This document shows, piece after piece, positions 14,458 to 29,778 of a DNA stretch of 64,000 nucleotides; position 1 is the first letter of the stretch, and each line of letters begins with the position of its first letter. The notes below the pieces were generated by a model, which was not told the DNA's origin, did no database searches, and was given only the letters and a program-made list of their open reading frames with translations. Made by a program: the position numbers and the translations under genes. The stretch comes from an uncultured Planctomycetaceae bacterium (GTDB lineage Bacteria; Planctomycetota; Phycisphaerae; SM23-33), in contig CAYRZU010000002.1 in NCBI GenBank assembly GCA_964428895.1, positions 14,595 through 78,594 on the forward strand, written 5' to 3'.

Positions 14458-16686
14458 ATGAGGCGAATCGTTTTCGCGATGGTGGCGCTATCTTTGGCGT
14501 CAGCGGCGTCGGCCGGTGTGGCGGCGGCGGATGACTATGACCTGACGTGGCTGGGCCTGGGCGGCGCGGACTTTATTAAGGACGACGGCACGGTCTACGC
14601 CGAGAGCTTCCAGATCGCCGACAACGATCTGGTCCTCGGCCGCAACCGCATCTTCTACGGCACGGCCAACAACTACGGCGACGCGTGGTGGGTCTCGGAC
14701 GGCACGACCACCACTCGAGTCGGTCTGTTCGACACCGACCACACCCGCAGCACCGACAATCAACAGAAGACCTACGTACTGGGCTTCTATGGTGGCGGGC
14801 AGTTCGCGGCCGGCGAGTCGGAGAAGTACCGTCCCGACGGCAGCAAGATTTCCAACACGCCCTGGGTGTATGACGGTACGCAGACCATCGCGTTGGGTCT
14901 GACCGGCGCCGTCTATACGGACGCCGGCGGGTACCTCTACCCCAGCCGCTGGGAAGGCGCCGCCAACGGCAACTTCCTGGGGATGAACACCATCTACAAC
15001 GGCGGATCCACCAACATGGGCACCGCCACGTGGGTCTACAACTACGCCACCGACACCCACACCAGCGTGGGATTGACCGGAGCGCAGTACATTCGCGATG
15101 ACGGCTACGTCAAGACCCGCGCCGGGCGCCTCTCTCCCGACGGCAACTACGCCTTCGGGCGGACCTATCTGTACAGCGGCTCAACGGAGAACGGCACGCA
15201 CGGCTGGCGGTATGACGTCAGCACCGACACCACGGTGCAAATCGGCCTGACCGGGGCGGGGTTCGTTCGCGACGACGGCTACATGGAAGTCGAGATCCGC
15301 CGCGGCAACGCGTCCGGTCAGCTCAACGGGCTATCCCGCCGCTACAGCGGCTCGACCGACATGGGCCGCGTGGCCTGGATCTTCGACGGGACCAGCACAA
15401 CCCAGATCAGCCCCACCGGCGCCGAGTTCAGCCGGGCCGATGGCTACCGATACGAAGACGCCTGGTACATCAACGCGTCCGGCCAGGTCGCCGGCGAAGC
15501 CACCACCTACGACGGCGCCGCCACCGGCGGCAAGCGGGCGTGGTTCTACAACGGCACGACCACGCAGGTCCTGGACGGCCTGCAGGGGGGGTACTTCGAG
15601 AAGTCCAACGGGCACAACCAAGCCCTGCCCAACGGCCTCAACGCGGCCGCTCAGATCACCGGCACGAGCTATCGCTACAACGCCTCGGACACCTACATCG
15701 GCCTGCAGGGCTGGTTCTACGACAGCGCCACCGATACCACCGTCGCCTTGGGCCTGACCGATCCCGCCTACACGCGGGTGTCCGACGACAAGCAGTATCA
15801 CTATCCCCACGAACTGAGCGCAACGGGACTCGTGCGCGGCAGCAGCGACCGGTACGACGGCCTGTTCAGCAAGGGCCGTTGGGTCTACGACTGGGACACC
15901 GACATGACCTACGAGTTGGCGTTCTCGACCCGCTCGGACGGTTACTATGACACCCCCAAGTTCGAGTTCACCAACGACGGCGACGGTCTGGTCGGCTACT
16001 ACGAGCTCTTCGATGCCTTTGACGTTTCGCAAGGCTATAGCTTGTTCTACTGGACCATCGACCGGGCCACCGATACCCCCACCTTCGTGGACCTGGAAGA
16101 CCGAACCGCCCTGGCGGCCATGGAAGACCTCTTCGCCCTCTACTACAAAGGCTGCGGCATGAACGCCGGCGCCTTATTCGCCGGCACGGGCACCATGGCC
16201 GACGGGTCGCAGGGCGCGTATCTGCTGACGCCGGTTGAGACGAGCGTCCCGGGCGACTTCGACGGCGACGGCGACGTTGACGCCGACGACGTCGACATCC
16301 TCTGCGCCAACATGGGCGGCGACCTGAATCCCTACGACGTCAACAGCGACGGCGTGGTGGATGAAGACGACATGATCTACCACATCGAGACGTTGGTCGA
16401 GTACGACACCAACGGCGACGGCACGGCCGACGGCAACGGAACGTATCGGGGCGACTTCAACCTCGACGGCGTGGTCAACGCCACCGACCTGCAGATCATG
16501 AAGGGCGGCTTCGGCGCGGTCGGTGGCTATGCCGACGGCAACGCCAACTGCGACACCGTGGTCAACGCCACCGACCTGCAGATTCTCAAGAGCACGTTCG
16601 GCCAGACCGCCTCGGCCGTGCCCGAACCGTTGACGGTCGGCCTGCTGGGCCTGGGCGGCCTGACGCTCTTGAGACGACGGAAGTAG
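14458..16686 (+). CDS. PEP-CTERM-anchored surface protein with about 10 degenerate ~50-aa tandem repeats and C-terminal dockerin-type Ca-binding repeats
   Basis: RBS AAGGAG. Signal peptide MRRIVFAMVALSLASAASAGVAAA. Repeats T..VGLTG..Y.RDDGY. C-terminal DFDGDGDVDADD...DFNLDGVVNATDLQIMKG...NCDTVVNATDLQILK (dockerin type I-like), then VPEPLTVGLLGLGGLTLLRRRK (PEP-CTERM). Confidence 0.8.
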   Translation: MRRIVFAMVALSLASAASAGVAAADDYDLTWLGLGGADFIKDDGTVYAESFQIADNDLVLGRNRIFYGTANNYGDAWWVSDGTTTTRVGLFDTDHTRSTDNQQKTYVLGFYGGGQFAAGESEKYRPDGSKISNTPWVYDGTQTIALGLTGAVYTDAGGYLYPSRWEGAANGNFLGMNTIYNGGSTNMGTATWVYNYATDTHTSVGLTGAQYIRDDGYVKTRAGRLSPDGNYAFGRTYLYSGSTENGTHGWRYDVSTDTTVQIGLTGAGFVRDDGYMEVEIRRGNASGQLNGLSRRYSGSTDMGRVAWIFDGTSTTQISPTGAEFSRADGYRYEDAWYINASGQVAGEATTYDGAATGGKRAWFYNGTTTQVLDGLQGGYFEKSNGHNQALPNGLNAAAQITGTSYRYNASDTYIGLQGWFYDSATDTTVALGLTDPAYTRVSDDKQYHYPHELSATGLVRGSSDRYDGLFSKGRWVYDWDTDMTYELAFSTRSDGYYDTPKFEFTNDGDGLVGYYELFDAFDVSQGYSLFYWTIDRATDTPTFVDLEDRTALAAMEDLFALYYKGCGMNAGALFAGTGTMADGSQGAYLLTPVETSVPGDFDGDGDVDADDVDILCANMGGDLNPYDVNSDGVVDEDDMIYHIETLVEYDTNGDGTADGNGTYRGDFNLDGVVNATDLQIMKGGFGAVGGYADGNANCDTVVNATDLQILKSTFGQTASAVPEPLTVGLLGLGGLTLLRRRK
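16254..16686 (+). repeat. Shared dockerin-like/PEP-CTERM C-terminal module, copy 1 (coding repeat family)
   Basis: Nucleotide- and protein-level similarity to 21516-21959, 22811-23249 and 24940-25272. Confidence 0.7.
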
Positions 16687-16708
16687 TCTCCGCCCTCAGC
16701 GCATCGAA

Positions 16709-16740
16709 GCGGGCATCCTTCATGGATGCCCGCCTTCTGG
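16709..16740 (+). terminator. Perfect 10-bp stem hairpin after the PEP-CTERM gene (putative terminator)
   Basis: GCGGGCATCC (16709-16718), loop TTCAT, GGATGCCCGC (16724-16733), then CTTCT. Confidence 0.45.
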
Positions 16741-16787
16741 GGCCGCGTCTGGTACACTCCCAGCCTACCCACATCAGGATCGACGAT

Positions 16788-18188
16788 ATGCCCAAGCCGA
16801 ATCTGTTGTACATCATGACCGACCAGTGTCGCGCCGACGCCCTGGGTTGCAGCGGCGGATGGGTGCGGACGCCGAACTTGGATCGCATCGCGGCTGAGGG
16901 TGTGCGATTCACCAACGCGGTGACCAACTGTCCGATCTGCATCCCCGCGCGGGTGTCGCTGGCGACCGGCCGATATCCGCACAACACCGGCGTGTGGGAC
17001 AACTTCGAGTACGACATGCCGGCCGAATGGCCCACCTGGATGCAGGCCGTCCGCGAGGCCGGCTATCGCACCAGCCTGTTCGGCAAGACCCACCTCCACC
17101 ACCACAGCGGCGATCTGCGCGACCGCGAGCATCTGATCCGCGCCTACGGTATCGACGACATCGACGAAATCACCGGCCCGCGCGCCAGCACAGACTGCAC
17201 CTGCGCGATGACGGCGAACTGGGAGGCCAAAGGGCTCCTGAAGCCCTACCAGGCCGACTACGCCGAACGCTTCGCCAACAAGCCATGGGTCGTGCGCCCC
17301 TCCGTCCTGCCGCTGGAGCACTACGCCGACGTCTACGTCGGTCAGCAGGCCAAGCGCTATCTCGAAAGCTACCGCCGCGATCAGCCGTGGTGCTGTTGGG
17401 TGAGTTTCGGCGGCCCACATGAACCGTGGGACACCCCCGAGCCCTATGCCAGCATGTATCGGCCGGAGGATATGCCTCCGCCGGTCGGCTCGCGCGACGC
17501 GCTGATCGACGGCGCCGCCAAGGGCCACCTCGGCCGCGTGATGGCGCACTACGCCCCCGAGGCCCTCTCGGCCGACGACATCGCCGCGATGCGGGCCAAC
17601 TACGCCGGGAACGTTACGCTGATTGACGACCAGATCGGCGAGATTCTCGCCGCCATCGAGGCCCGGGGGGAACTGGACAACACCGTGATCGTCTTCTCTT
17701 CCGACCACGGCGAAATGAACGGCGATCACGGGCTGATCTACAAGATGCAGTTCCTCAACGGGGCCGTCCGCGTGCCGCTGCTGGTCCGCACCCCGGCCAC
17801 CGCCGCCGCGGGAGGCGGCGCGGTCTCCAACTCACCGGCGGAGTGGTTCGACATCGGGCCGACGCTGGTGGAACTGGCCGGCGGCGAACTGAAGCACCAA
17901 CAGTTCGCCCGTTCGCTGCTGCCGACGGTCAACGATCCGTATCGCCAGCACCGGCCGTTGGCGGTCTCCGAGTACGCGCGGGAAGTCATGATCATGGACG
18001 AACAATGGAAGCTTGCGGTCAACCGTGACGGCGAGCCGTACCTACTGTTCGACCAGGTCAACGATTCCGAAGAACTCATCAACCGCGTTGCCGACGCAGC
18101 CGTTGCCAACGTGATCGACCAGATGCGGGCCGAACTCCTCAGCCACCTACTGCAAACGCAGATTGACCGAGCCGGGCCCGGCGTGTAG
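16788..18188 (+). CDS. Formylglycine-dependent sulfatase (Cys-type)
   Basis: MPKPNLLYIMTDQCRADALG. CPICIPAR (C-x-P-x-R). GKTHLHH. Start ATG 16788 after AGGAT. Confidence 0.9.
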   Translation: MPKPNLLYIMTDQCRADALGCSGGWVRTPNLDRIAAEGVRFTNAVTNCPICIPARVSLATGRYPHNTGVWDNFEYDMPAEWPTWMQAVREAGYRTSLFGKTHLHHHSGDLRDREHLIRAYGIDDIDEITGPRASTDCTCAMTANWEAKGLLKPYQADYAERFANKPWVVRPSVLPLEHYADVYVGQQAKRYLESYRRDQPWCCWVSFGGPHEPWDTPEPYASMYRPEDMPPPVGSRDALIDGAAKGHLGRVMAHYAPEALSADDIAAMRANYAGNVTLIDDQIGEILAAIEARGELDNTVIVFSSDHGEMNGDHGLIYKMQFLNGAVRVPLLVRTPATAAAGGGAVSNSPAEWFDIGPTLVELAGGELKHQQFARSLLPTVNDPYRQHRPLAVSEYAREVMIMDEQWKLAVNRDGEPYLLFDQVNDSEELINRVADAAVANVIDQMRAELLSHLLQTQIDRAGPGV

Positions 18189-18229
18189 ATGATGGCCATC
18201 AGGATGAAGCAACCGAGGAAGGACGACGT

Positions 18230-19015
18230 ATGAGTTCGGACAGTATCCAGAAGGTGCAGGTGGGGGGCTGCGGGCTGGAGCTGTGTCGGGTCGGCATCGG
18301 CTCGGGGACGGTGGGGGGCGGTAAGGAGTCCAACCAGACGCGGCTGGGCGATGACGTCTTCAATGATCTCCTGCGATACGCCTACGACCGCGGCATTCGG
18401 TATTTTGATACGGCTGACGACTACGGCAGCCATCGGCACATGGCCCAGGCCCTGGCCGACAAACCCCGCGACAGCTACCAGCTTGTCAGCAAGTTCGCGC
18501 CCGTCGGCTCGCAGCCGGGAGCAGACCTGCTCAGCCCGGACCTGCCCATCGAGCGGTTCCTGGCTGAATTGGCCGCCGACGTCATCGACCTGCTGCAGAT
18601 CCACTGCGTGGCCGACGCGGATTGGACCGACCAGCATCGAGCCCAGATGGATGCGATGGCTGAGTTGAAGGCTCGCGGCGTCATTGGCGCTCACGGCGTG
18701 TCCTGTCATACGCTCGTGTCACTGGAGACTGCCGCCGACGAGCCATGGGTCGACGTGATCCACGCGCGGATCAATCCGGTCGGCACGAACATGGACGCCG
18801 AACCGGCCAAGGTCGTCCCCGCGCTCCGACGCGCCAAAGCCAACGGCAAGGGCGTCATCGGCATGAAGCTGTTCGGCCAGGGGGAGTTCAGCGCCGCCCA
18901 GCGCGCCGAGAGCATCGACTGGGTGATCGGCCTGGACTGCGTGGACGTGCTGTTGGTGGCGTTCGAGTCGACGGCGGAAGTCGATGAGTTCCTGGCCGTT
19001 GCCGGGCTCGGTTAG
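18230..19015 (+). CDS. Aldo/keto reductase family oxidoreductase
   Basis: GIRYFDTADDYG, LLQIH, AKR-like length and layout. Its stop overlaps the RBS of the next sulfatase. Confidence 0.75.
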   Translation: MSSDSIQKVQVGGCGLELCRVGIGSGTVGGGKESNQTRLGDDVFNDLLRYAYDRGIRYFDTADDYGSHRHMAQALADKPRDSYQLVSKFAPVGSQPGADLLSPDLPIERFLAELAADVIDLLQIHCVADADWTDQHRAQMDAMAELKARGVIGAHGVSCHTLVSLETAADEPWVDVIHARINPVGTNMDAEPAKVVPALRRAKANGKGVIGMKLFGQGEFSAAQRAESIDWVIGLDCVDVLLVAFESTAEVDEFLAVAGLG

Positions 19016-19024
19016 GAGACCCCC

Positions 19025-20350
19025 TTGGATCGGCCGAACATTCTCACCATCCTGGCCGACGACCTGGGCTGGGGCGACCTGGGCCTACACGGCTCAGACA
19101 TCCGCACGCCCGTCATCGACGCACTCGCCCAAGGCGGCGTGGAGCTCACCCAGCACTATGTGTGTCCCATGTGCACGCCTACGCGGGTGAGCCTGCTGAC
19201 CGGTCGGCACCCCGGCCGATTCGGGCCGCACGCGACGGTTCCTTCCAACGCGCCGGTCCTGCCGGATGGGTACTCCACGTTGGCCACGGTTCTGCGCGAC
19301 GCCGGTTACGACACCGGCCTGTTCGGCAAGTGGCATCTCGGGTCGGACCCACGGTACGGGCCCAACCAGTTCGGGTTCAACACCGGCTACGGCAGCCTCG
19401 CCGGCGGAGTCGACCCGTTCAACCACCGCTACAAGCGCGGCGAGTTCTCGGTGACATGGCACCGTAACGGCCAGTTGGTCGAGGAGCCCGGCCACGTGAC
19501 GGACTTGATCGTCCGCGAGGCCCGTCAGTGGATTGAAAGCCGCGATCGATCGTGGTTTGCCTACGTGCCCTTCACGGCTGTCCACGTTCCGGTCAAGCCG
19601 ACCGACGCATGGTTGGCCCAATACGAGGATGACACGTTCGACGACGATCCGCTCAGGGATCAGTCCTTCAAGAAATACGCCGCCTACACCAGCCACATGG
19701 ATCACGGCATTGGCCAACTGCTCGAATCGCTCGAACGGACGGGCCAGCGGGATAACACGTTCATCGTGTTCGCCTCCGACAACGGCGCCATTAACGATTG
19801 CGCCCTCCACAGCACGGACCAATACCCCGGCCACCAGGAGGCCTACCCGCGACTGGGCTCGAACGCGCCGTTCCGGGGTGTCAAAGCCCAGCTCTACGAA
19901 GGCGGCGTCCGCACGCCGACGGTCGTCAACTGGCGCGGGCGATTGTCGGCAGGGCAGATCGACCGGCCGGTGCAGGTGGTCGACTGGATGCCCACCCTCA
20001 CGGCGCTAACCGGGGCCCAGCCGGCCACCGATCCCCAATGGGACGGCCAGGACATTTGGCCGTTGATCGCCGGGGACGCGCCCGAGCCATCCGAGCGCAG
20101 CCTGTTCTGGAACTTCCACGGCGGCGACGCGCTGGGCATGCGCCACGGCGATTGGAAGCTGATCGTTCGCACCGTCGACGGCGCCGAGCATCGCGAGCTG
20201 TTCAACATTGCCGACGACCCCACCGAACAGCACGACCGCGTGTCCGACTGCCCGGCCATCGTCAACGATCTGGCTGACAGGATCGCCGAGCAGCGCACTC
20301 GCGACGGCACGAGCGCCCGGGGCGACGTCGATTCGCCCATGGTCTCCTAG
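19025..20350 (+). CDS. Formylglycine-dependent sulfatase (Cys-type)
   Basis: TTG start 7 nt after AGGAGA. NILTILADDLGWGDLG. CPMCTPTR. GKWHLG. Confidence 0.9.
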   Translation: MDRPNILTILADDLGWGDLGLHGSDIRTPVIDALAQGGVELTQHYVCPMCTPTRVSLLTGRHPGRFGPHATVPSNAPVLPDGYSTLATVLRDAGYDTGLFGKWHLGSDPRYGPNQFGFNTGYGSLAGGVDPFNHRYKRGEFSVTWHRNGQLVEEPGHVTDLIVREARQWIESRDRSWFAYVPFTAVHVPVKPTDAWLAQYEDDTFDDDPLRDQSFKKYAAYTSHMDHGIGQLLESLERTGQRDNTFIVFASDNGAINDCALHSTDQYPGHQEAYPRLGSNAPFRGVKAQLYEGGVRTPTVVNWRGRLSAGQIDRPVQVVDWMPTLTALTGAQPATDPQWDGQDIWPLIAGDAPEPSERSLFWNFHGGDALGMRHGDWKLIVRTVDGAEHRELFNIADDPTEQHDRVSDCPAIVNDLADRIAEQRTRDGTSARGDVDSPMVS

Positions 20351-20375
20351 TCCGGGGACGCCGCTGCGGCGAGCG

Positions 20376-20404
20376 CTTGTGTGTTCGCGATGGCGTGTTA
20401 TAAT
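20376..20404 (+). promoter_or_regulatory. Promoter with consensus extended -10 TGTTATAAT upstream of the FGE-domain PEP-CTERM gene
   Basis: TG at 20396-20397 and TATAAT at 20399-20404, with a weak -35 (TTGTGT). ATG at 20466 after AAGGAGAG. Confidence 0.45.
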
Positions 20405-20465
20405 GCGTTTCGCAGGATCCAAGTCTCTTGCGAGGGCGGGGACACCAACAGCAAGGAGAGAGACG

Positions 20466-21959
20466 ATGAAACGGTTACTGACTGTAATTGCAGTGCTTAC
20501 CGTGTGCGCCGGCGCCGCGAGCGCCGGGACGCGGGCGGACCTGTCAGGCGATTTCGTGGCCGATTTCAGCACGGCCATGGATATGCCTTTCTTGAACGTG
20601 GGCAATCTGGGCAACCTCGACAACACCTACGACGGCGGCAAGGGCGCCGTGGCCTACGCCTACGACGTCGGCAAGTTCGAGGTCACCACCGGCCAATACA
20701 CCGAGTTCCTCAACGCCGTCGGGGCCACGGACACCTACGCGCTGTTCAACGACCGGATGGCCGACCCCGTACACGACGACGCGCACCCAGATGATCTCCC
20801 CTTCGGCGGGTGTAACATCCAGCGCGCCGGCACAGCCGGCAGCTATACGTACTCCATCGCCGCCGGTTGGGAAGACCGTCCCGTCAACTACGTCAGTTGG
20901 GGCGACGTGTGCCGATACGCCAACTGGATGAGCAACGGCATGCCCACCGGCGCCCAGGACCTGACCACCACCGAAGACGGCGCCTACTTCCTCAACGGCG
21001 TCACGGACAGCACCGGCCTCAAGGCGGCCGTCGCCGCACGGAACTCCCCCGGGGCCGGCGAGCGGTTCTTCTATCTGCCCACCGAGGACGAATGGGTCAA
21101 GGCCGCCTTCCACGCCAACGACGGTGACACCGGCAACTACTTCGACTACGCCACCAGTTCCGACACGCTGCCGGGGTACATCGCCGACGGCGGATCGGTC
21201 ACCGATCCGGACCCCGGCAATATCGCCACCTACGACGGCGACGGCGGTGTCGATGGCATCGGTGCTCCTTACTACCGCACCGAAGTCGGCGAGCACGAGA
21301 ACACCGATAGCCCGTACGGTGCATTCGATATGAACGGCAACGTGGGCGAGTGGACGGGCGGCCTGGGCTTCGGGTCGTTCGCCATCGTTCGCAACGGCGA
21401 GTACGCCTACGGGCCCGACAACCTGCACGCCGATTACCGCCGCATCCGAAGCCTCACCCGCGAAAGCGGCGACATCGGCTTCCGCCTGACCAGCGTGGCC
21501 GCGAGCCTCCCGGGCGATTTCGATGGCGACGGCGAGGTCGGCGCTCCGGATATCGACGAGCTGTGTGCGAACGTCGGAACGATCGATCCGGTGCTGATCG
21601 AGAAGTACGACATGGATCTGGACGGGGACGTTGATGAAGACGACATGATCTACCTGGTGGAGAACCTGGTGGAATACGACACGGACGGCGATGGGGAATC
21701 CGACGGCGCCGGCACCTACGTAGGTGACTTCGACCTCAACGGCGTGGTCAACGCGACCGACCTGCAGATCATGAAGGGCGGTTTCGGCGGCGTGGGCGGC
21801 TACGCTGACGGCAACGCCAACTGCGACATCGTGGTCAACGCGACCGACCTGCAGATCATGAAAGCCAACTTCGGCCTGTCCGCCTCAGCTGTCCCGGAAC
21901 CGCTGACGATTGGCCTGCTGAGCCTGGGCGGCCTGGCGCTGCTTCGGCGCCGCCGGTAG
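20466..21959 (+). CDS. FGE-sulfatase/SUMF1-domain protein fused to dockerin-like repeats and a PEP-CTERM anchor
   Basis: Signal peptide MKRLLTVIAVLTVCAGAASA. PVNYVSWGDVCRYANWM, LPTEDEWVKAAF, YGAFDMNGNVGEWTGG (SUMF1 signature). C-terminus has GFRL where FGEs have GFRC (recalled). Then dockerin-type repeats and VPEPLTIGLLSLGGLALLRRRR. Confidence 0.75.
   Translation: MKRLLTVIAVLTVCAGAASAGTRADLSGDFVADFSTAMDMPFLNVGNLGNLDNTYDGGKGAVAYAYDVGKFEVTTGQYTEFLNAVGATDTYALFNDRMADPVHDDAHPDDLPFGGCNIQRAGTAGSYTYSIAAGWEDRPVNYVSWGDVCRYANWMSNGMPTGAQDLTTTEDGAYFLNGVTDSTGLKAAVAARNSPGAGERFFYLPTEDEWVKAAFHANDGDTGNYFDYATSSDTLPGYIADGGSVTDPDPGNIATYDGDGGVDGIGAPYYRTEVGEHENTDSPYGAFDMNGNVGEWTGGLGFGSFAIVRNGEYAYGPDNLHADYRRIRSLTRESGDIGFRLTSVAASLPGDFDGDGEVGAPDIDELCANVGTIDPVLIEKYDMDLDGDVDEDDMIYLVENLVEYDTDGDGESDGAGTYVGDFDLNGVVNATDLQIMKGGFGGVGGYADGNANCDIVVNATDLQIMKANFGLSASAVPEPLTIGLLSLGGLALLRRRR
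21516..21959 (+). repeat. Shared dockerin-like/PEP-CTERM C-terminal module, copy 2
   Basis: PGDFDGDGEVGAPDIDELCANVG...DFDLNGVVNATDLQIMKGGFGGVGGYADGNANCDIVVNATDLQIMK...VPEPLT. Confidence 0.7.
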
Positions 21960-21983
21960 AGGACACGAACAAAGGAGATGTGC

Positions 21984-23249
21984 ATGACTGGAAGCACGAT
22001 CACGAAGCTGGTCATCGGGCTGTTCACCGCCGTTGTCGCTGTTTCGTCGGCCGAGGCGGCCCTGCAGGTGTACGATTACCGTGACAACATTCTCGCCCCC
22101 CGGGTCGAGTACTTTGCCTACGATCAGACTATGATCGCGCTGAACGTCAAGACCGGTGACTTCCAATACGTCTACGAGGTCGGGCATATCGCCGACGGCG
22201 TCAATGAAGTGGAGCGCTACAATCAGGACGGGTTCGTCGACAACAATCTGATCCCCGAGGCCGAGCTCACCGACGACATGGTCTGGTTCGCCCATCGGGA
22301 CGTGAAGGTCCCCGGCGCGGCCACCGGCGATGCGGTGCTCTTCGAGACCCCGACCGGCGGCGCTGGCGGGCAACTTGACGCCGACGGCGCGATCTACAAC
22401 CCCGCTCGGGTGCCGGGCTCGAATCCGAACACGTGGGTGGCCCACGATTGGTACTGGGCCGATCAGGACCTCCCGGGCGGAACCGCGGCGCTTCCTTACC
22501 CGACCGACGGTGCGTCGGCCGGGACCGTTGACGGCACGTTGAGCTACAATAATGACTCGGCGACCGGTTATACCGGCGCCCTCACCAGTGGATTCGGCGG
22601 CTGGGGCCACGCCAATGGATGGCCGTTCGGCGTCTCGCCTTCAACGGCTACGGTCGCCTTCCAACTGGAAGAGGCCGACGGCACGCACTACGGGTGGGTG
22701 GCCTTTCGCCACAACGGCGACCGCGTCCACCAGTGGATTCACGGCTGGGCGTACCAGACCACGCCCTTCGTGGCGGCAGAGCTGACTTGGGATTCCAGCA
22801 GCGAACCGGGCGATTTCGACGGTGACGGCGACGTGGACGCCGACGACATCGACATTCTCTGCGCCAACATGGGCGGCGACCTGGACCCCTACGATCTCGA
22901 CGGCGACAGCGACGTCGATGAAGACGACATGGTCTTCCTGGTGGAGACCCTCGTGGAGTACGACTCCGACGGCGACGGGACTGCCGACGGGACCGGAACG
23001 TATCAGGGCGACTTCAACCTCGACGGCGTGGTCAACGCCACCGACCTGCAGATCATGAAGGGCGGCTTCGGCGCCACCGGCGGCTATGCCGACGGCAACG
23101 CCAATTGCGACACCGTGGTCAACGCCACCGATCTGCAGATCCTCAAGACCCATTTCGGCCTAACGGCTGCGGCCGTGCCCGAACCGCTGACGGTGGGCCT
23201 GTTAGGCCTGGGTACGCTCGGTCTGCTGCGTCGAAGGGCCGAGGCCTAG
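21984..23249 (+). CDS. PEP-CTERM surface protein (unknown N-terminal passenger domain, dockerin-like module)
   Basis: Second ATG chosen (6 nt after AAAGGAG), giving a signal-like N-terminus. C-terminal module as in paralogs, ending VPEPLTVGLLGLGTLGLLRRRAEA. Only 25 nt downstream of the previous gene. Confidence 0.7.
   Translation: MTGSTITKLVIGLFTAVVAVSSAEAALQVYDYRDNILAPRVEYFAYDQTMIALNVKTGDFQYVYEVGHIADGVNEVERYNQDGFVDNNLIPEAELTDDMVWFAHRDVKVPGAATGDAVLFETPTGGAGGQLDADGAIYNPARVPGSNPNTWVAHDWYWADQDLPGGTAALPYPTDGASAGTVDGTLSYNNDSATGYTGALTSGFGGWGHANGWPFGVSPSTATVAFQLEEADGTHYGWVAFRHNGDRVHQWIHGWAYQTTPFVAAELTWDSSSEPGDFDGDGDVDADDIDILCANMGGDLDPYDLDGDSDVDEDDMVFLVETLVEYDSDGDGTADGTGTYQGDFNLDGVVNATDLQIMKGGFGATGGYADGNANCDTVVNATDLQILKTHFGLTAAAVPEPLTVGLLGLGTLGLLRRRAEA
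22811..23249 (+). repeat. Shared dockerin-like/PEP-CTERM C-terminal module, copy 3
   Basis: PGDFDGDGDVDADDIDILCANMGGDLDPYDLDGDSDVDEDDMVFLVETLVEYD...DFNLDGVVNATDLQIMKGGFGATGGYADGNANCDTVVNATDLQILK. Confidence 0.7.
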
Positions 23250-23367
23250 ACGTCCAAGGCGAAGGGCGGCGACGTGGGCCGCCCGCTGTTGTGTCCGGCC
23301 GGGGCGTGGTCGAACGCCGGTCGGCAAAGGGAGAGACGCTGCGCGGTCTCAATAAGGGAGCGACGTC

Positions 23368-25272
23368 ATGATCGAGCGAATTGTGGTGGTGCTGACGGTG
23401 GTTGGGGTATGCGCGGGGACGGGCTACGCGGGCTTGACCGCTACCGGGGACGTCACCCCGGCCGATCCGGCGACCTGGACGGACGCCACCTCCGTCTACG
23501 TGGGGCAGACCGGCACGGGGGCGGTGGACATCACCGCCGGGGACACCACCGATGCCTACGCCGCCCACGTGGGGGATGAATCAGGCGCCTCCGGAGAGGT
23601 CACGGTCGACGGCGCGGGGTCGAGCTGGGATATCGTCTACCCACTCCGGGTCGGCGATGAGGGCGACGGTCTCCTGACCATCACCAACGGCGGCACGGTC
23701 AGCAGCGGCAGCATGAACTACGTCGGGCGTATGGCCGGGTCGACGGGCGAGGTCAACATCGACGGGGCCGGCTCGTCGTGGACACACGACGGCCATATCT
23801 GGATCGGCGAATCTGGCCAGGGGGAAGTGAACGTCACCAACGGTGGGTCGTTCGTCAGCTACCATAGCGATGCCGGCACGATGGTCATGTTCGGTCTCTA
23901 TGCTGATTCAGTTGGCTCGATCACGGTTGACGGCCCCGGCTCGACCTGGACGGGGGACGCCGGGACCGGGCTCAGCGTCGGCGTATGGGGAAGCGGCACA
24001 TTGAGCATCACCAACGGCGGCAGCGTAGCCTTGGGCGGCCTGTCGAGTTCTATCGGCCTCTACGCCGGGTCGACGAACGTGGCGACCGTGGATGGCACGG
24101 GGTCTCTGCTGGACCTACAGGGCTCGCTGTCTGTCGGTAGTGGCACGCTGAACGTCACCGACGGCGGCCAGGTCGACGTAGGACGTTCGTTGATCACGAG
24201 GCTGGGCGCGGCCAGCGAGATTCACTTCGACAATGGGTCGGTCGAGGCCGGGGCGCTGTACGCGGCTCCGGGGCAACTGACCGGCGCGGGGATCGTCAAC
24301 GCCCACGGCCTCGCCAGCGACCTCGACCTGGTCTTCGACAGCGTCGACGACCTCACGCAGACCTTCATCTGGGACGACCTGCCCGGGCAGGATGTTACCG
24401 TGAACCTGGACGTGGACGGCCAGGGCGGCCTGGGTGCCGGACACGACGGCGTCGGGTCCATGACGATTGCATCCGGCATGGACGTCACGTCGGTGGAAGG
24501 CATCATCGGCTACAACGCCGGCTCGAACGGCGCGGTCACGGTCGACGGGTCCGGCTCGGCCTGGCGGAACGACGTGGAACTGACCGTCGGCTGGGAGGGC
24601 GCCGCGACGCTGACGATCTCCGACGACGCGCTCGTCACCGTTGGATCGTGGGGCTTGACCATCGACGAGAACAGCGACGGCGACAGCTTCGTCAACATGC
24701 GCGACGGCGGCATGTTGGCGCTGCGCGGGAACGCCGACGACTCGCTGGAGGATTTTCTGGACCTGATCGAAGGCACCGACGCCATCCGTTACTGGGACGG
24801 CGCCGCCGAAGACTGGGCCCCTCTTATCGGCGCGACCTACGGGGAGGACTACACCCTCGAATACATGACCGAAGGAGAACTACAGTATTTCACCGTGCTG
24901 ACCGTTTCGGCCTCTGATGACCCGGGGATCACGGACGGCGACCTGGACGATGACGGTGACGCGGACGCCGACGACATCGACCTCCTCTGCGCCAACATGG
25001 GCGGGGACCTGGACCCGTACGACCTCAACGAAGACGGTGTGGTGGACGAAGACGACATGATCTTCCACATCGAGATGCTTGTGGAGTGGGACAACGGGGT
25101 CGACAGCGGCGTCGGCACGTATCAGGGCGACTTCAACCTCGACGGCGTGGTCAACGCCACCGACCTGCAGATCCTCAAGGGCAACTTCGGGCAGGTCGCG
25201 GCGGCTGTTCCCGAACCGCTGACGATGGGCTTGCTGAGCCTGGGCGGGTTGGCCCTTCTGCGGCGCCGGTAG
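23368..25272 (+). CDS. PEP-CTERM surface protein with autotransporter-like beta-strand repeats (GxGxLxITNGGxV) and a partial dockerin module
   Basis: RBS AGGGAG. Signal peptide MIERIVVVLTVVGVCAGTGYA. Repeated TVDG.GS.W...L.VG..G.G.L.ITNGG.V units. C-terminus DADADDIDLLCANMGGDLDPYDLNEDGVVDEDDMIFHIEMLVEWD...DFNLDGVVNATDLQILKGNFG...VPEPLTMGLLSLGGLALLRRR. Confidence 0.7.
   Translation: MIERIVVVLTVVGVCAGTGYAGLTATGDVTPADPATWTDATSVYVGQTGTGAVDITAGDTTDAYAAHVGDESGASGEVTVDGAGSSWDIVYPLRVGDEGDGLLTITNGGTVSSGSMNYVGRMAGSTGEVNIDGAGSSWTHDGHIWIGESGQGEVNVTNGGSFVSYHSDAGTMVMFGLYADSVGSITVDGPGSTWTGDAGTGLSVGVWGSGTLSITNGGSVALGGLSSSIGLYAGSTNVATVDGTGSLLDLQGSLSVGSGTLNVTDGGQVDVGRSLITRLGAASEIHFDNGSVEAGALYAAPGQLTGAGIVNAHGLASDLDLVFDSVDDLTQTFIWDDLPGQDVTVNLDVDGQGGLGAGHDGVGSMTIASGMDVTSVEGIIGYNAGSNGAVTVDGSGSAWRNDVELTVGWEGAATLTISDDALVTVGSWGLTIDENSDGDSFVNMRDGGMLALRGNADDSLEDFLDLIEGTDAIRYWDGAAEDWAPLIGATYGEDYTLEYMTEGELQYFTVLTVSASDDPGITDGDLDDDGDADADDIDLLCANMGGDLDPYDLNEDGVVDEDDMIFHIEMLVEWDNGVDSGVGTYQGDFNLDGVVNATDLQILKGNFGQVAAAVPEPLTMGLLSLGGLALLRRR
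24940..25272 (+). repeat. Shared dockerin-like/PEP-CTERM C-terminal module, copy 4 (shorter; second dockerin repeat absent)
   Basis: See paralogous modules. Confidence 0.6.
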
Positions 25273-25277: not shown

Positions 25278-26174
25278 TCAGTCCAGCAGGACCGGATTGG
25301 TCCACGCCTTGCCGCCGGCGCGGTCGGTGACGACCGCCCGTACGAACGGCCAGTGTGGCCGGGGGATGGTGTGTCCGCTGATTCCTCTGCCTTTCGCGGG
25401 CCCCCGGCGCACGGCCTTTTTGGCGCCCGGGCCGAGCAGGGAGATGGTCGCGCAGGACGAGCAGCGAAGTTCAACCGTCTCGGCCGTGACGCGGAAATCC
25501 TTGATCTCCGGACCGGTCGACGCGTAGCAGGCGCCGGCCCGGATCGCCGATAGGACCGAGCGCGTCGACAGCGACTTCATCTTCAGCCACGTCCATGCGG
25601 TCGCCACGTCCGCTTCGGTGTGCGCGTCGTCGGTCGCGATGGCGGGCAAGTAGATACCCGCGTTCAGCCCCGCCGCCCATTCACGCTCGCGGTCGCCGCC
25701 ACCGGTCCCCTGTTGATGCGAGGCCCACAGCTCGAACGCCGCCAAAGCGGGTGTATCCGCCAGAAGCTGTGGCCTGACGTTCACGCCGGGCGGATGCGCC
25801 AGGATCGCGATGCCCCCGAGGTCCTCGATCTGCTGGATGCACGCCCGAACATCCTTCTGGGCCGCACGCGACACGGGGTACCCGTGCGGAACGCCCAAGC
25901 CCACGATGTGATGATTCCGGCACCGGTGGCCCGGATACAGCGGGTGTAGCTCAATGCCGTTGATGACCAGAAATCCCCGGCCGCCCAATCCCCGGACATC
26001 GTTCGACCGCTCGTGATCGGTCAAGGCCAGAACATCGTAGCCCTTCTTCCGATAGAGCTCGGCGGCGGCCTCCACCGACCACGCGCCGTCCGATGAACGG
26101 GTATGCGTGTGCAGGGAGGCCCGATACCACTTGCCCGGTAACTCGAACGGATTGGTCAATGGTCTGCTGGTCAT
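25278..26174 (-). CDS. PHP-domain metal-dependent phosphoesterase-like protein
   Basis: True start ATG 26174 (MTSRPLTNPFELPGKWYRASLHTHTRSSDG) after GGGAGTGAAA. H-x-H...SDG PHP signature. The 886-aa ORF call is an antisense artefact. Confidence 0.65.
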   Translation of the reverse strand: MTSRPLTNPFELPGKWYRASLHTHTRSSDGAWSVEAAAELYRKKGYDVLALTDHERSNDVRGLGGRGFLVINGIELHPLYPGHRCRNHHIVGLGVPHGYPVSRAAQKDVRACIQQIEDLGGIAILAHPPGVNVRPQLLADTPALAAFELWASHQQGTGGGDREREWAAGLNAGIYLPAIATDDAHTEADVATAWTWLKMKSLSTRSVLSAIRAGACYASTGPEIKDFRVTAETVELRCSSCATISLLGPGAKKAVRRGPAKGRGISGHTIPRPHWPFVRAVVTDRAGGKAWTNPVLLD

Positions 26175-26324
26175 CGTTGTTTCACTCCCGCGGCAATCTG
26201 ACCGGAGAGGCCTCGCCGGGCAAGGAAAAACCGAAACGCCCAGGCCCGAGCGCCCGCTCGGTTGACATCGGGCGGGGCGGCGCAGTAGAAGCTCTTTCGG
26301 TGACGACCACGCGGAAGGGCCCCA

Positions 26325-27242
26325 ATGAAACCGACTTTCACAAATCCGTTCGAATTGCCCGGCAAGTGGTACAAGGGCAACTTCCATTGTCATACCCGGA
26401 CCTCCGACGGCGGCGTGTGGGTCGAAGACGCCGTCCGGATGTACCGCGAGCATGGGTACAACGTGCTGGCTGTCACCGACCACATCAACACCAACGATAT
26501 CAGCGGGCTGTCCGACAAGAAGATGCTGGTGCTCAACGGGGCTGAGTTGCATCCGCCGTTCCATAAGCGCGTGAACCCAATCGTGGAGTACCACATCTGC
26601 GCGATCGGTCTCAAGCACGGCCATCCGTTCACGCGGAAGATGTGGGGGAACGTGCAGGATTGCCTGGACCACATTCACGCGTTCGGCGCGGTAGCCATCA
26701 TCGCCCATCCCAAGGACGTCAGCTTGGACCCCGTTACGGAAATGGTGGGCCTCAAGCACGTGGCCGCCGTGGAAGTCTGGACCAGCCTCTCCGAGATCGA
26801 CATGGACCACGGCGAGGCCGAGGATGACTGGGCCGAGTGCATGGAGCATGGGATGTTCCTGGCGGCCACCGGGTCCGACGACGCCCACTGGGCCCCGCGG
26901 CACGGCTGGTCGGAGGCCTTCGGCGCGTGGACCATGCTCAAGATGCCGTCGCTGACCGAAGCCAACGTCCTGCAGGCCCTGAGGACCGGTGCGTGCTACG
27001 CCTCCGGCGGGCCGACCGTGACGGACTTCCGGGTCGTCGACGGCCAGGCGATCATCAAGTGCTCGCCCGTCACGCGAATCCACTTCAAGTTCGGTCGGCA
27101 CGAACGGAAGAACCGTTGGGCCAAGCTGGATAAGACCATCCGAGGCTTCACGGCGGACGTGTCCGACTGGGAGTGGGTGCGGGCGGTGGTCGTCGACGCC
27201 GACAACCGCAAGGCCTGGACCAATCCGATTCCGATCCGGTAG
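26325..27242 (+). CDS. PHP-domain metal-dependent phosphoesterase-like protein (paralog of 25278-26174, divergently transcribed)
   Basis: MKPTFTNPFELPGKWYKGNFHCHTRTSDGG. About half identical to the minus-strand neighbour by eye. Conserved C-terminal ...KAWTNPI. Confidence 0.7.
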   Translation: MKPTFTNPFELPGKWYKGNFHCHTRTSDGGVWVEDAVRMYREHGYNVLAVTDHINTNDISGLSDKKMLVLNGAELHPPFHKRVNPIVEYHICAIGLKHGHPFTRKMWGNVQDCLDHIHAFGAVAIIAHPKDVSLDPVTEMVGLKHVAAVEVWTSLSEIDMDHGEAEDDWAECMEHGMFLAATGSDDAHWAPRHGWSEAFGAWTMLKMPSLTEANVLQALRTGACYASGGPTVTDFRVVDGQAIIKCSPVTRIHFKFGRHERKNRWAKLDKTIRGFTADVSDWEWVRAVVVDADNRKAWTNPIPIR

Positions 27243-27269
27243 GGCCGCCTGGTTACAGGAAGCTAGACC

Positions 27270-28280
27270 ATGAGTTGTCTCTTCACACCTACCACCATCG
27301 GCCCGGTGACGGTCAAGAACCGCTTTGTCCGCAGCGCCACCGGCGAGTGGATGTCGCGAAAGGACGGCAAGATTCAGGATCGGCTGGTTCCGATGTACGA
27401 GGGTCTGTCGGCCGGCGGGGTCGGGCTGTTCATCACCGGGCATATGTTCGTGCACGAGGACTGGCCCTGCCATCCGCGCCAAACCGGCATCTACAGCGAC
27501 GATCATCTGGCGGGCTTGCGGCGAATGGCGGAGGCGTCCACGTACAACGACACCCGCGCCGTGGCGCAGATCAACTACGTCGGCCGCAAGCCGCACGAGA
27601 TGACGCCGGCTGAAATCGAAGAGGCCCGTGACGCCTTCGTCGCCGCTGCCCAGCGCGCGGTTGACGCCGGTTTCGACGGCGTGCAAATCCACGCCTCGCA
27701 CGGGTATCTGATTAGTTGCTTCCTGACCCCGTCGGAGAACCAGCGGGACGACGCGTACGGCGCCGGCCCCGACGGCCGGCGCAAGCTGCTGCTGGACGTG
27801 GCCGAGCGGGTCAGAGACCAAATCGGGCCCGAAAGCGTCCTCTGCTGCAAGCTGGGCTCCGTCGACGGGCGTGACAACAGCCTGCCGCTTGAAGAGACCG
27901 TCGAGACGGCCAGGCAACTGGAGGCGTTGGGCCTGCACGCGCTGGAGCTATCGACGACACTACGGGGCGACCATCTGCACCCGATCATGGAGGGCGTCGA
28001 CTCGGTCGAAAAGGAAGCCTACCTGATGCGGGAGACCGTAGCCGTCAAGGAGGCGGTCGGCATTCCAGTGATGCAGGTGGGGGGGCTAAGGACGCTGTCC
28101 CGCATGGAGCAGATGGTTTCCGAGGGCACGTGCGACATGGTCAGCCTATGCCGGCCGTTCCTCCGCGAGCCCGACGTCGTCAACAAGTTCCGGGAGGGTG
28201 CGGCCACGCGCTCAGCCTGCATCTCCTGCAACAAGTGCCTCAACCGCCGCGGTAGCAAGTGCATCTTCGACGAGGCGTGA
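27270..28280 (+). CDS. Old Yellow Enzyme family NAD(P)H:flavin oxidoreductase
   Basis: FTPTTIGPVTVKNRFVRSA...GGVGLFITG matches the OYE N-terminus. C-terminal CISCNKC...C Fe-S-like Cys motif, as in the DCR/TMADH subgroup. Confidence 0.75.
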   Translation: MSCLFTPTTIGPVTVKNRFVRSATGEWMSRKDGKIQDRLVPMYEGLSAGGVGLFITGHMFVHEDWPCHPRQTGIYSDDHLAGLRRMAEASTYNDTRAVAQINYVGRKPHEMTPAEIEEARDAFVAAAQRAVDAGFDGVQIHASHGYLISCFLTPSENQRDDAYGAGPDGRRKLLLDVAERVRDQIGPESVLCCKLGSVDGRDNSLPLEETVETARQLEALGLHALELSTTLRGDHLHPIMEGVDSVEKEAYLMRETVAVKEAVGIPVMQVGGLRTLSRMEQMVSEGTCDMVSLCRPFLREPDVVNKFREGAATRSACISCNKCLNRRGSKCIFDEA

Positions 28281-28303: not shown

Positions 28304-29563
28304 CTACCGGCGTTGCCGCCTTCTCAACAACGCTCCCGCACCCAGCGCCAGGAACGCCGCGGAGGCGGGCTCGGGGACCTCGCCGACAAAGGCGTCCCAC
28401 TGACCTGCGTTGGGGCCGGCGAGGTCGCCTTCCGTATAGCCCGTGAAGAAAACGCCGTCCGAACCGTCGGCCGAGACGCCAAACCCCCTGTCGTCATCGC
28501 TGGTTCCCGACTGATACGTCCACACGACATTGCCGTTGGCATCGTACTTGCGCACAAAGACGTCATCGCCGCCGGCGTTGGCCGGTCCCAGGCTGCCCTC
28601 GGTCGTCCCCGACACGTAGACCCCTCCGGCGCCGTCGGCTGCGACGCCGTAGCTCCGTTCGTCGCCGCTGGTGCCGAATTGCCGCGTCCACACCGCATTG
28701 CCGTCGGCATCGTACTTCCGCACGTAGGCGTCCATCCCGCCGGCATTGGGCCTTTCCAGGTCGCCGCCGGTCCAACCGGACACATAGACGTTCCCCATGC
28801 CGTCGGCCGAGACGCCATAGCCCGCGGCCGACCCGTATGACCTGTACCAGACCTCATTGCCGTTGGCATCGTACCTGGCGACCCATGCTTGGCTGATACC
28901 TACGTGGTTGCCGCCTGCGTATCCGGACGCGTAGACGCCCCCTTGCCCGTCCGGGGCGATGCCGCCGTAGCTGGTCTCGCCGACCGGCATCGCCGTCCAA
29001 ACCAGGTTGCCGCCGGCGTCGTACTTGCTAAGGAAAGCCTCGTCGGTGGTCGCATTCCAACCGGACGTATAGACGTTACCCAAGCCGTCGGCCGTGACCC
29101 CGCTACCCCAATAGGACGCCGTCCCCGCTTGCGTGGTCCAGACGTGATTGCCGCCGGCGTCGTACTTGCTCACGAATGCGCCGCCGCTCCCGGTGGCGCC
29201 CGGCAGGGCGCCGCCTGCCTTGCCGGCGAGGTAGACGTTGCCGGAACCATCGGCGTAGACGCCGCCCCCGCCGCCGGTATCGTACCCGGCCGAACCGAAC
29301 TGACGGGTCCATATGAGTTGGCCGCTGGTGCTGTATTTGCTGATGAAGGCGTCCTTGTCTCCGGCGTTGGGCCCGGCCAGGCTGCCTTCAGTCCAGCCGG
29401 TGGTGTAGACGCTGCCCGCCCCGTCGGACGAAACGGCGTAGCTCCAGTCGTTGCTGCTCGTGCCGAATTGCTGCATCCACGCGACACCTTGAGCCCCGGC
29501 CGACCCGGCGCAAACCAGCACCATCACGGTAATTACGAAAACGCTCCAGAGGATACGGCACAT
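28304..29563 (-). CDS. PEP-CTERM-anchored beta-propeller (SBBP-type repeat) protein
   Basis: RBS GGAGAG. Repeated Y(D/A)..GN.VWT.Q.G units. C-terminal VPEPASAAFLALGAGALLRRRQRR. Confidence 0.75.
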   Translation of the reverse strand: MCRILWSVFVITVMVLVCAGSAGAQGVAWMQQFGTSSNDWSYAVSSDGAGSVYTTGWTEGSLAGPNAGDKDAFISKYSTSGQLIWTRQFGSAGYDTGGGGGVYADGSGNVYLAGKAGGALPGATGSGGAFVSKYDAGGNHVWTTQAGTASYWGSGVTADGLGNVYTSGWNATTDEAFLSKYDAGGNLVWTAMPVGETSYGGIAPDGQGGVYASGYAGGNHVGISQAWVARYDANGNEVWYRSYGSAAGYGVSADGMGNVYVSGWTGGDLERPNAGGMDAYVRKYDADGNAVWTRQFGTSGDERSYGVAADGAGGVYVSGTTEGSLGPANAGGDDVFVRKYDANGNVVWTYQSGTSDDDRGFGVSADGSDGVFFTGYTEGDLAGPNAGQWDAFVGEVPEPASAAFLALGAGALLRRRQRR

Positions 29564-29679
29564 GATCTCCCACTCTCCTCTCCGTTGGCCACTCGGCGGC
29601 TCGGGCCGCCTGTCCCTTTTCCACCAACCTGCTCATGTTACCACAGTTGGGGCGTTCTTCAAGCCCGATCCCCCGACGG

Positions 29680-29778
29680 TCAGACCGCCGGCAGCGCGCC
29701 CGGGCGGCGCAACTCGTCTTGGCCCTTGCCGACGTCGACGGCGTTGACCGGCACGCCTTGTTTGACCGCCTCGGCGGC
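29680..29778 (-). pseudogene. Remnant: 3'-terminal ~32 codons of an FAD-dependent oxidoreductase paralog
   Basis: The minus strand encodes AAEAVKQGVPVNAVDVGKGQDELRRPGALPAV*. Compare the C-terminus of 35190-36587 (AAEAVKQAVPVNAVDVGSVQAELRRQDVLLEA*). Nucleotide similarity to 35190-35290. Confidence 0.6.

Follow-up and report, generated by a model that had tools for sequence, protein, structure and literature searches.

A double-dockerin domain precedes the PEP-CTERM signal of proteins with unrelated passengers in an uncultured planctomycete

Why should four neighboring genes that encode otherwise unrelated proteins end in the same protein module? The question is raised by a 64,000-nt stretch of DNA from an uncultured Planctomycetaceae bacterium (contig CAYRZU010000002.1), which we refer to, at its full length, as “the window”. 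A first-pass annotation, made from the sequence without database searches, had picked out four consecutive plus-strand genes (here genes 1–4) whose products were said to share a C-terminal module: loops of EF-hand type, then dockerin type I repeats, then a PEP-CTERM sorting signal. All four open reading frames (ORFs) lie where they had been placed, and the common module is confirmed; the C-terminal ends of the four proteins align over 113–150 aa, with 75–84% protein identity. The module is a conserved domain of ~120 aa that directly precedes PEP-CTERM, and “double-dockerin pre-anchor domain” is the most fitting description of it. The host is probably an uncultured marine, Phycisphaerae-like Planctomycetota bacterium. 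Here, we describe the identity of this domain, its predicted fold, its spread and its evolution, and we weigh possible explanations for its position.

On identical metagenome contigs (JGI 3300013118 and 3300007510/11; ENA ERZ23498668), public gene calls agree with genes 1–4, with products of 742, 497, 421, and 634 aa. All four genes are identical in independent assemblies from several samples, and an identical copy of the gene 3 protein is found on nine public contigs. Third-position guanine-plus-cytosine (GC) content in the frames of these genes is 0.82–0.87, which is typical of coding frames in this DNA. The N-termini of all four proteins are hydrophobic and resemble Sec signal peptides, as judged by inspection rather than with a predictor; the N-terminus of gene 1, MRRIVFAMVALSLASAASAG, is one example. 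Scans for promoters and terminators found no more sites than in shuffled sequence.

The tails of genes 1–4 have a mean column identity of 79%. Relative to the tail of gene 1, protein identity is 73–76% for gene 2, 84–85% for gene 3, and 77% for gene 4; the tails of genes 2 and 3 are 73–75% identical to one another. These values are well above the ~40% below which common ancestry had been considered dubious. Each tail scores an E value of 1e-56 to 1e-87 with a hidden Markov model (HMM) built from the four, meaning that the shared tail is not due to chance. In DNA, the tails form a dispersed direct repeat, as the first-pass annotation had described, with a codon-aligned identity of 71–84% and longest exact shared runs of 16–69 nt.

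The module has two halves, which we refer to as “Doc-A” (upstream) and “Doc-B” (downstream). Doc-B is a bona fide type I dockerin, as judged by Pfam, by a profile search of PDB sequences, and by fold. Whole proteins score 31.0, 24.2, 33.9, and 25.3 bits (genes 1–4, respectively) with Dockerin_1 (PF00404), all above the gathering score of 22.9. When the two halves of the tail are scanned apart, the span GDFNLDGVVNATDLQIMK...GNANCDTVVNATDLQILK, i.e., Doc-B, holds the dockerin signal, with 33.5 bits for Doc-B of gene 1 alone and 23.7 bits for the single repeat of gene 4. The Ca loops of Doc-B are DFNLDGVVNATD and NANCDTVVNATD, with a helix after each; gene 4 retains one of these two segments. In the search against PDB sequences, which used a profile of 39 tails from the wider family (see below), Doc-B aligns to cellulosomal type I dockerins, with 2vn5_B (E = 2.5e-8) followed by 2y3n_B, 1daq, 4fl4, and 6kg9. 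Doc-A aligns in the same search to the dockerin of Clostridium perfringens NagH (2jnk_A; E = 1.3e-6) and to calmodulin (E ~2e-5). By inspection, Doc-A has the form DFDGDGDVDADD...helix...DVNSDGVVDEDD...helix, with the canonical 1-3-5-9-12 spacing of Ca ligands. The family profile and an AlphaFold model suggest that Doc-A is a divergent dockerin/EF-hand pair.

At the extreme C-terminus, the motif VPEPLT.GLL.LG.L.LLRRR comprises VPEP, a hydrophobic helix, and RRR. The PEP-CTERM model TIGR02595 (cut-off 16) scores 21.1, 19.6, and 17.2 bits for genes 1–3 and 15.8 bits, marginally under the cut-off, for gene 4, in line with the sorting signal that had been assigned to these tails; PF07589 (cut-off 20.7) exceeds its cut-off only in gene 3 (23.0 bits). 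The source genome encodes six PEP-CTERM proteins within ~75 kb. Among them is a protein with an SBBP propeller (SBBP, 98 bits; TIGR02595, 20.0 bits), encoded on the minus strand of the window and correctly recognized in the first-pass annotation as a fifth PEP-CTERM protein. A six-frame search with the module HMM found no match in this protein, which shows that the sorting signal can occur without the module. Indeed, module and signal are separable, since other plain PEP-CTERM neighbors likewise occur without the module.

AlphaFold, given the gene 3 tail and a 39-sequence alignment, predicts a single compact domain with high confidence (predicted local distance difference test score [pLDDT], 93.1; predicted template modeling score, 0.80). 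The model consists of four loop-helix units (helices at 13–21, 40–50, 79–88, and 108–117) and a terminal membrane helix. With the four window tails only, pLDDT was 38.8 and there was no confident model. A Foldseek search of the PDB with the confident model returned dockerins almost exclusively. The top match, 2y3n_B, has a template modeling (TM) score of 0.83, a root mean square deviation (rmsd) of 1.4 Å, and 38% identity, which, together with the Pfam and PDB profile scores, bears out the first-pass reading of the second half as dockerin type I repeats; the second match is a Clostridium thermocellum double dockerin, 8x39_A, over 136 columns at an rmsd of 12 Å and 22% identity. Across 153 tails of the family, conservation is position-specific and falls on the Ca ligands, the hydrophobic core, and a pair of cysteines. 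These cysteines, at column 20 (LCANMGG) and column 102 (NANCD), are both present in 95 of the 153 tails, both absent in 47, and present singly in 11 (p = 5e-27). After thinning to <60% identity, the corresponding counts are 9, 19, and 5 (p = 2.5e-4). Because the two cysteines co-occur across tails, a disulfide that ties Doc-A to Doc-B is likely. The two loop-helix pairs would give four Ca2+ sites per full module, and they pack in the model into one unit that is probably stapled by this disulfide.

The proteins that carry the module have little else in common. The passengers of genes 1–4 are not significantly similar in any pairing (best BLASTP E = 0.42), as had been claimed, and their types also agree with the first-pass descriptions (tandem repeats, a SUMF1/FGE fold, an unassigned domain, and autotransporter-like repeats). 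The passenger of gene 1 (positions 14458–16245) consists of at least seven tandem units with the pattern W-x-Y-D/N..T.T..GLTGA.Y.R.DGY, each ~57 aa rather than the ~50 aa first given; these repeats matched no Pfam or NCBIfam family. The passenger of gene 2 (20466–21509) matches FGE-sulfatase with 67.6 bits over profile positions 35–190 of 255. By inspection, it has no cysteine within its last ~190 residues, and for this reason it probably belongs to the FGE fold as a non-catalytic member that lacks the catalytic Cys pair. The gene 3 passenger matched no family in Pfam and NCBIfam scans, and the gene 4 passenger has six stretches that match the T5SS/PEP-CTERM-associated repeat TIGR04393 (221.5 bits; cut-off 23). 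Two observations stand apart from these assignments. First, the sulfatase genes that adjoin gene 2 (16722–18188 and 19025–20350) encode proteins with no obvious signal peptide, whereas the gene 2 product is predicted to be exported. Second, gene 3-type passengers, the largest passenger cluster in the family, were considered as a single domain extending the module; this was rejected, since their alignment proved to comprise several unrelated subfamilies joined by single linkage.

How widely is the module spread? In an exhaustive profile search with the four tails against 1.84 billion cluster representatives (50% identity clusters), 11,626 matches were found at E ≤ 1e-3, 884 at E ≤ 1e-10, and 122 at E ≤ 1e-30, most of them spanning the whole module. 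Of 200 proteins retrieved, 185 have the module at the extreme C-terminus, the exceptions being mostly fragments or frameshifts. The 144 full-length passengers comprise 56 clusters that are unrelated to one another; with one representative scanned per cluster, the passenger families include Laminin_G_3, SBBP, DUF7453, alkaline phosphatase, FG-GAP, LRR, subtilase with a P-domain, pentapeptide repeats, lectin C, FGE-sulfatase, and others. There are also complete proteins with no passenger, in which a signal peptide is followed only by the module and PEP-CTERM (e.g., P0026, 167 aa). A protein search with the tail returned proteins of at most 260 aa, and the named relatives among them are proteins from metagenome-assembled genomes (MAGs) of Planctomycetota. 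Among the matches listed from species-representative genomes is the Phycisphaerae MAG HyVt-337, which has the module at two loci with different passengers.

Module genes can also be neighbors of one another. On marine contigs, one locus (L007, 9135–13278) has three module genes in succession, and another (L017, 6589–12886) has two plain PEP-CTERM genes interspersed among four module genes. These arrays include a passenger-less protein and a protein with a Peptidase_C39_2 domain, and some of their copies lack the first Ca loop of Doc-A or Doc-B. Among the matches listed from metagenome contigs, the full double module is found mainly at 56–65% GC. The accession prefixes suggest that these contigs derive from saline, sediment, and marine samples, an origin that we presume rather than document. 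In other metagenome contigs among the matches listed, a simpler tail is common, with a single dockerin-like pair before PEP-CTERM and the pattern GDANLDG..D..DF..LA.NF...GDFNYDG..N..DF..LA.NF. We take these contigs, from their accessions, to come from peat, soil, and freshwater samples. The frequency of the simpler tail indicates that dockerin plus PEP-CTERM is a broad architecture, of which the double form is one elaboration.

The first-pass annotation had not recognized the combination of dockerin and PEP-CTERM as a described display system. Within the literature searched, we found no paper naming the two together; in the one paper where dockerin and exosortase both occur, they are handled separately, and we found no account of the module's coupling to exosortase sorting. 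Likewise, scans of the proteins revealed no curated Pfam or NCBIfam model that describes the double-dockerin plus PEP-CTERM unit. On the other hand, metagenomes contain many examples of the combination, and proteins of this kind are already marked with both Pfam domains by automated annotation. The two components are familiar ones, and simpler versions occur widely; it is the double-dockerin unit itself that is undescribed, while being widespread in PEP-CTERM proteins.

Tails track the genome rather than the passenger. The gene 1 passenger is 66% identical over 599 aa to that of an orthologue, P0190, but the two tails are only 46% identical and belong to Cys-containing (gene 1) and Cys-free (P0190) subtypes; by contrast, genes 1 and 3 have unrelated passengers and tails that are 85% identical. 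Similarly, relatives of the gene 2 passenger carry tails that are 50–61% identical to that of gene 2, below the 73–75% that it shares with genes 1 and 3. Where two window tails have the same residue, they use the same codon in 62–77% of cases, as compared with ~53% expected at synonymous saturation. Sequence is also repeated within each tail. The two segments per gene that encode VVNATDLQI are identical over 26–32 nt, forming 26-nt direct repeats in genes 1 and 3. Both copies in gene 2 have a synonymous GCG codon where genes 1 and 3 have GCC, which suggests intragenic homogenization. The tail of gene 4 is shorter than those of genes 1–3 by exactly 29 aa (87 nt), equivalent to one dockerin repeat, and its single VVNATDLQI copy is preceded by sequence of repeat 1 and followed by sequence of repeat 2, as fits a deletion between identical direct repeats. 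Other loop losses are seen in other genomes (L007_b and L017). Together, tail-passenger discordance, codon sharing, homogenization in gene 2, and the gene 4 deletion give indirect support to the first-pass suggestion that the DNA repeat could promote recombination and domain shuffling. Haft et al. noted in 2006 that PEP-CTERM regions are more alike within a species (PMC1569441); the behavior of the module extends this known property to a much larger tail. Coordinates are collected in Table 1.

Table 1. Coordinates of the module genes, their tails, and related features; positions are those of the window unless a locus is named.
Feature	Position	Strand	Description
Gene 1	14458..16686	+	742 aa: signal peptide, at least 7 tandem ~57-aa repeats, double-dockerin module, PEP-CTERM
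Gene 2	20466..21959	+	497 aa: signal peptide, FGE-sulfatase-fold passenger, module, PEP-CTERM
Gene 3	21984..23249	+	421 aa: signal peptide, passenger without family match (...DGTHYGWV... motif), module, PEP-CTERM
Gene 4	23368..25272	+	634 aa: signal peptide, six TIGR04393 repeats, shortened module, PEP-CTERM
SBBP beta-propeller PEP-CTERM protein	28304..29563	-	419 aa; without dockerin module; PEP-CTERM at 28307-28378
Gene 1 tail module	16249..16683	+	Doc-A 16255-16404, Doc-B 16453-16602, PEP-CTERM 16618-16683
Gene 1 Ca loops	16255-16290, 16336-16371; 16453-16488, 16540-16575	+	Doc-A (first two), Doc-B (last two)
Gene 2 tail module	21510..21956	+	Doc-A 21516-21677, Doc-B 21726-21875, PEP-CTERM 21891-21956
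Gene 3 tail module	22806..23246	+	Doc-A 22812-22961, Doc-B 23010-23159, PEP-CTERM 23175-23246; sequence used for AlphaFold
Gene 4 tail module	24934..25269	+	Doc-A 24940-25089, one Doc-B repeat 25129-25191, PEP-CTERM 25207-25269
1332-aa module gene	L014 20282-21250; also L015, L016	-	~9-10 kb beyond window start, same genome
Simpler-tail loci	L036, L038, L041, L042, L059-L065, L073-L074, others		Single dockerin-like pair before PEP-CTERM

What is the module for? We favor an explanation in which genes 1–4 encode exported, PEP-CTERM-sorted envelope proteins with a Ca2+-binding double-dockerin domain that acts as a spacer or attachment domain, and we put its probability at roughly 0.55. Each protein, consisting of a signal peptide, a passenger, the ~120-aa pre-anchor domain, and PEP-CTERM, would be exported by the Sec pathway. 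After export, the module would bind Ca2+, which is plentiful in seawater, and fold next to the membrane as a rigid, acidic unit, holding the passenger at a distance from the anchor. Through this unit, proteins with different passengers may also attach, Ca2+-dependently, to the exopolysaccharide layer or to one shared protein partner, and an exosortase would process the PEP-CTERM end. Duplication, recombination, and gene conversion would spread the tail and keep its copies alike within a genome, and its internal direct repeats would generate repeat-loss variants such as gene 4. This explanation builds on the identity and fold of the domains, on their position at the C-terminus, and on the module's portability across at least 56 passenger types and recurrence in tandem arrays. 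PEP-CTERM proteins have been linked experimentally to the retention of exopolysaccharide on the cell and to adhesion (PMC9850573, PMC12188702).

Several points weigh against this explanation. First, Doc-A alone is below the Dockerin_1 cut-off, with 13.7 bits for gene 1, 21.3 bits for gene 2, and no score for genes 3 and 4. The EF-hand families PF00036, PF13405, and PF13499 have no match in the whole proteins, and the best score of Doc-A (gene 1) is 16.7 bits against a cut-off of 25. The first-pass claim that the upstream loops are of EF-hand type is consistent with their ligand spacing, the profile matches to 2jnk and calmodulin, and the AlphaFold model, but not with the curated EF-hand and Dockerin_1 thresholds. 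Second, the profile used to size the family contained the PEP-CTERM segment, such that the coupling of dockerin to PEP-CTERM among the top matches is partly built in. Third, no exosortase gene was found in the window, in the 10 kb on each side of it (~84 kb in all), or in five other module-bearing regions, and so the PEP-CTERM signal is the sole basis for invoking exosortase sorting; among 465 ORFs from the metagenome loci among the matches listed (at least 80), the 10 with multiple transmembrane segments that were viewed look by eye like transporters, glycosyltransferases, and permeases. Fourth, similarity of tails within the genome is not uniform. A 1332-aa neighbor, of which the last ~320 aa were seen, has a double-dockerin plus PEP-CTERM tail that is 54–57% identical to those of genes 1–3, lacks Cys20 and Cys102, and has cysteines elsewhere, in DCDADD and TQCGD. 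Lastly, we infer, rather than observe, Ca2+ binding, the disulfide, and the surface location, and the data fit a passive stalk as well as an active docking unit.

If the module is an active docking unit, the obvious partner is cohesin. In this alternative, which we consider unlikely but credible, the double dockerin binds cohesins of a scaffold or a neighboring protein and so gathers many different passengers into a Ca2+-dependent, “planctosome”-like surface complex, over and above their sorting by exosortase. Both the sequence and the fold of Doc-B are those of a canonical type I dockerin, and the two Doc-B repeats are nearly identical internally (VVNATDLQI occurs twice), like those of dockerins with dual binding modes. 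A double dockerin of C. thermocellum anchors a protease to a cell-bound scaffoldin (PMC12484212), and cohesin/dockerin pairs have been proposed in the freshwater Planctomycetes family Nemodlikiaceae (PMC6461901). Exposed helix residues of the module are fixed among the paralogues of the source genome and differ between genomes, as in species-specific cohesin-dockerin pairs; however, recent duplication or gene conversion explains this pattern equally well. No cohesin was matched by Pfam among the ~44 genes of the window, in its 10-kb flanks, or among neighbors in the five other module-bearing regions, nor was there any among the 25 commonest of the 37 families found on the 56 passenger types. 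Moreover, attachment by a dockerin is superfluous for a protein that already has an anchor, and variants that have lost a repeat (gene 4 and L007_b) persist. It is doubtful that marine Planctomycetota have an undescribed, exosortase-coupled surface-assembly system, in which dozens of unrelated passengers (enzymes, lectins, propellers, and beta-helix adhesins), once sorted, are Ca2+-locked onto a common cohesin-like scaffold or a sulfated exopolysaccharide coat.

A second alternative is that the dockerin-like region extends the sorting signal, being recognized by a dedicated exosortase or accessory factor and having no role after processing. In 185 of 200 family members, the module lies directly before PEP-CTERM, which would fit, as would the existence of passenger-less proteins and the co-variation of tails within genomes, which is expected of sequences co-evolving with one processing enzyme. 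However, the same genome and related arrays hold PEP-CTERM proteins without the module (the SBBP protein and the L017 neighbors), whole Ca loops have been lost while PEP-CTERM was retained (gene 4, L007_b, and L017), and an independently folding, Ca-binding domain of 120 aa (predicted, pLDDT 93) exceeds the needs of a recognition tag. We therefore regard this alternative as improbable. That the tail is an Asp/Gly-rich, low-complexity likeness or an artefact of assembly or annotation, with no functional unit behind it, can in practice be dismissed: the region is Asp-rich and repetitive and many of its database relatives are fragments on short contigs, but the genes recur unchanged in independent assemblies from several samples, their third-position GC is that of coding frames, the model is compact and confident, and conservation over 153 tails is position-specific.

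Returning to the favored explanation, a spacer or attachment domain on sorted envelope proteins, there are several reasons why the module merits attention. The role of non-cellulosomal dockerins has been an open question since they were cataloged across all domains of life, and the role of PEP-CTERM proteins after exosortase processing is known for only a few proteins of flocculation and motility. The module family joins these two poorly understood groups and, being sharply defined, abundant, and confidently folded in models, offers an experimental handle on both. The 120-aa domain could be expressed, allowing tests of Ca2+ binding and of the disulfide, and could serve as bait for partners in dominant marine degraders of sulfated polysaccharides. 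It could also mark the surface proteome of uncultured Planctomycetota/Phycisphaerae, and it provides an example of a sorting tail that moves from gene to gene and is homogenized within a genome. A demonstrated cohesin-like or polysaccharide partner would raise its significance. Should the surface-assembly system exist, it would amount to a modular layer for the capture and degradation of marine polysaccharides, and non-cellulosomal dockerins would gain a concrete, testable function.

The window as a whole is a carbohydrate-degradation island. It encodes glycoside hydrolases of families GH95, GH2, GH20, GH32, GH116, GH127, and GH130 and a GH5-like enzyme, together with an alginate-lyase/heparinase gene, seven sulfatases, a glycyl-radical enzyme, and several dehydrogenases. 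The glycyl-radical enzyme (PFL-like plus Gly_radical; 7571–9748, plus strand) lies inside the glycoside-hydrolase/sulfatase island, and its closest relatives are metagenome proteins with 78–90% identity. A search with this enzyme gave a taxonomic placement to phylum only, with matches in Planctomycetes/Planctomycetota MAGs at ~57% identity. A paralogous set of sulfatase, glycyl-radical enzyme, and GFO/IDH oxidoreductase is found beside another module gene (locus L019). Downstream of gene 4 there are three related PHP-like genes, at 25278–26111 (minus strand), 26325–27242 (plus strand), and 29566–29976 (plus strand). For the minus-strand copy, the identity is 40% over 285 aa. An ORF at 29635–29976 matches only the last 70 residues of the 26325–27242 product (71% identity, E = 2e-32) and looks like the remnant of a duplicated gene beside the SBBP PEP-CTERM gene. 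A neutral-ceramidase-like gene is split into two overlapping plus-strand frames (30003–30806 and 30725–31231; public calls of 267 and 142 aa), which may reflect either a frameshift/pseudogene or a sequencing error kept across assemblies. Finally, a stop-free frame of 886 aa on the minus strand (25278–27938) runs antisense through the 26325–27242 gene; only its 3′ part (~25278–26170, 298 aa) is called on public contigs, and it is an example of a spurious long ORF in a genome of 65% GC.

Several known systems resemble the module in part. Substrates of the PEP-CTERM/exosortase system (TIGR02595; PMC1569441) share with genes 1–4 the N-terminal signal peptide and the terminal VPEP, hydrophobic helix, and Arg cluster. 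They likewise occur in environmental Gram-negative hosts as many paralogues per genome, with unrelated bodies and with tails that are more alike within a genome. Unlike in these substrates, the signal is preceded here by a 120-aa double dockerin that is predicted to fold independently, and the DNA searched holds no exosortase. A domain of comparable position is known from archaea: the PGF-pre-PGF domain habitually lies just upstream of the archaeal PGF-CTERM signal on varied passengers, as the module does here. It differs in having another fold, no Ca-binding EF loops, archaeosortase A as its enzyme, and a host in another domain of life. PGF-pre-PGF and PGF-CTERM are among the InterPro names listed in PMC5244752.

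Cellulosomal type I dockerins (PF00404; 2vn5_B, 1daq, and 2y3n_B) are the closest match for Doc-B, which, like them, has two internally symmetric loop-helix repeats with a D-x-N-x-D-G-x-V-N-x-x-D loop, scores above the Pfam cut-off, and superimposes on 2y3n_B (TM-score 0.83; 1.4 Å). In contrast to these dockerins, the module has a planctomycete rather than a Firmicute host, no cohesin was found nearby, a membrane sorting signal follows the dockerin, and the passengers are mostly not plant-cell-wall enzymes. Dockerins of Planctomycetes are the subject of the “Planctosome” hypothesis, which Andrei et al. (2019, PMC6461901) put forward for Nemodlikiaceae and which combines dockerins with cohesin-bearing anchor and adaptor proteins, with no mention of PEP-CTERM. 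The likeness lies in non-cellulosomal dockerins of Planctomycetes and in a proposed Ca2+-dependent organization of secreted enzymes at the outer surface; the differences are that no cohesin was found here and that each protein has its own sorting signal. A precedent for two dockerins forming one unit is dDoc_0689 of Clostridium thermocellum (8x39/8x3a), attributed to Chen et al. (2024) in PMC12484212, where it is outlined as tandem dockerins of ~140 aa with a fixed interface and is proposed to retain a non-cellulolytic passenger, an S8 protease, on the cell surface. Although it is the second-best Foldseek match over 136 columns, the 12 Å rmsd and 22% identity mean that the two-dockerin composition is shared, with an arrangement that is either different or not comparable. 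The module here further has a putative inter-dockerin disulfide and a PEP-CTERM anchor, and, whereas dDoc_0689 is rare in C. thermocellum, the module is common, with hundreds of clusters.

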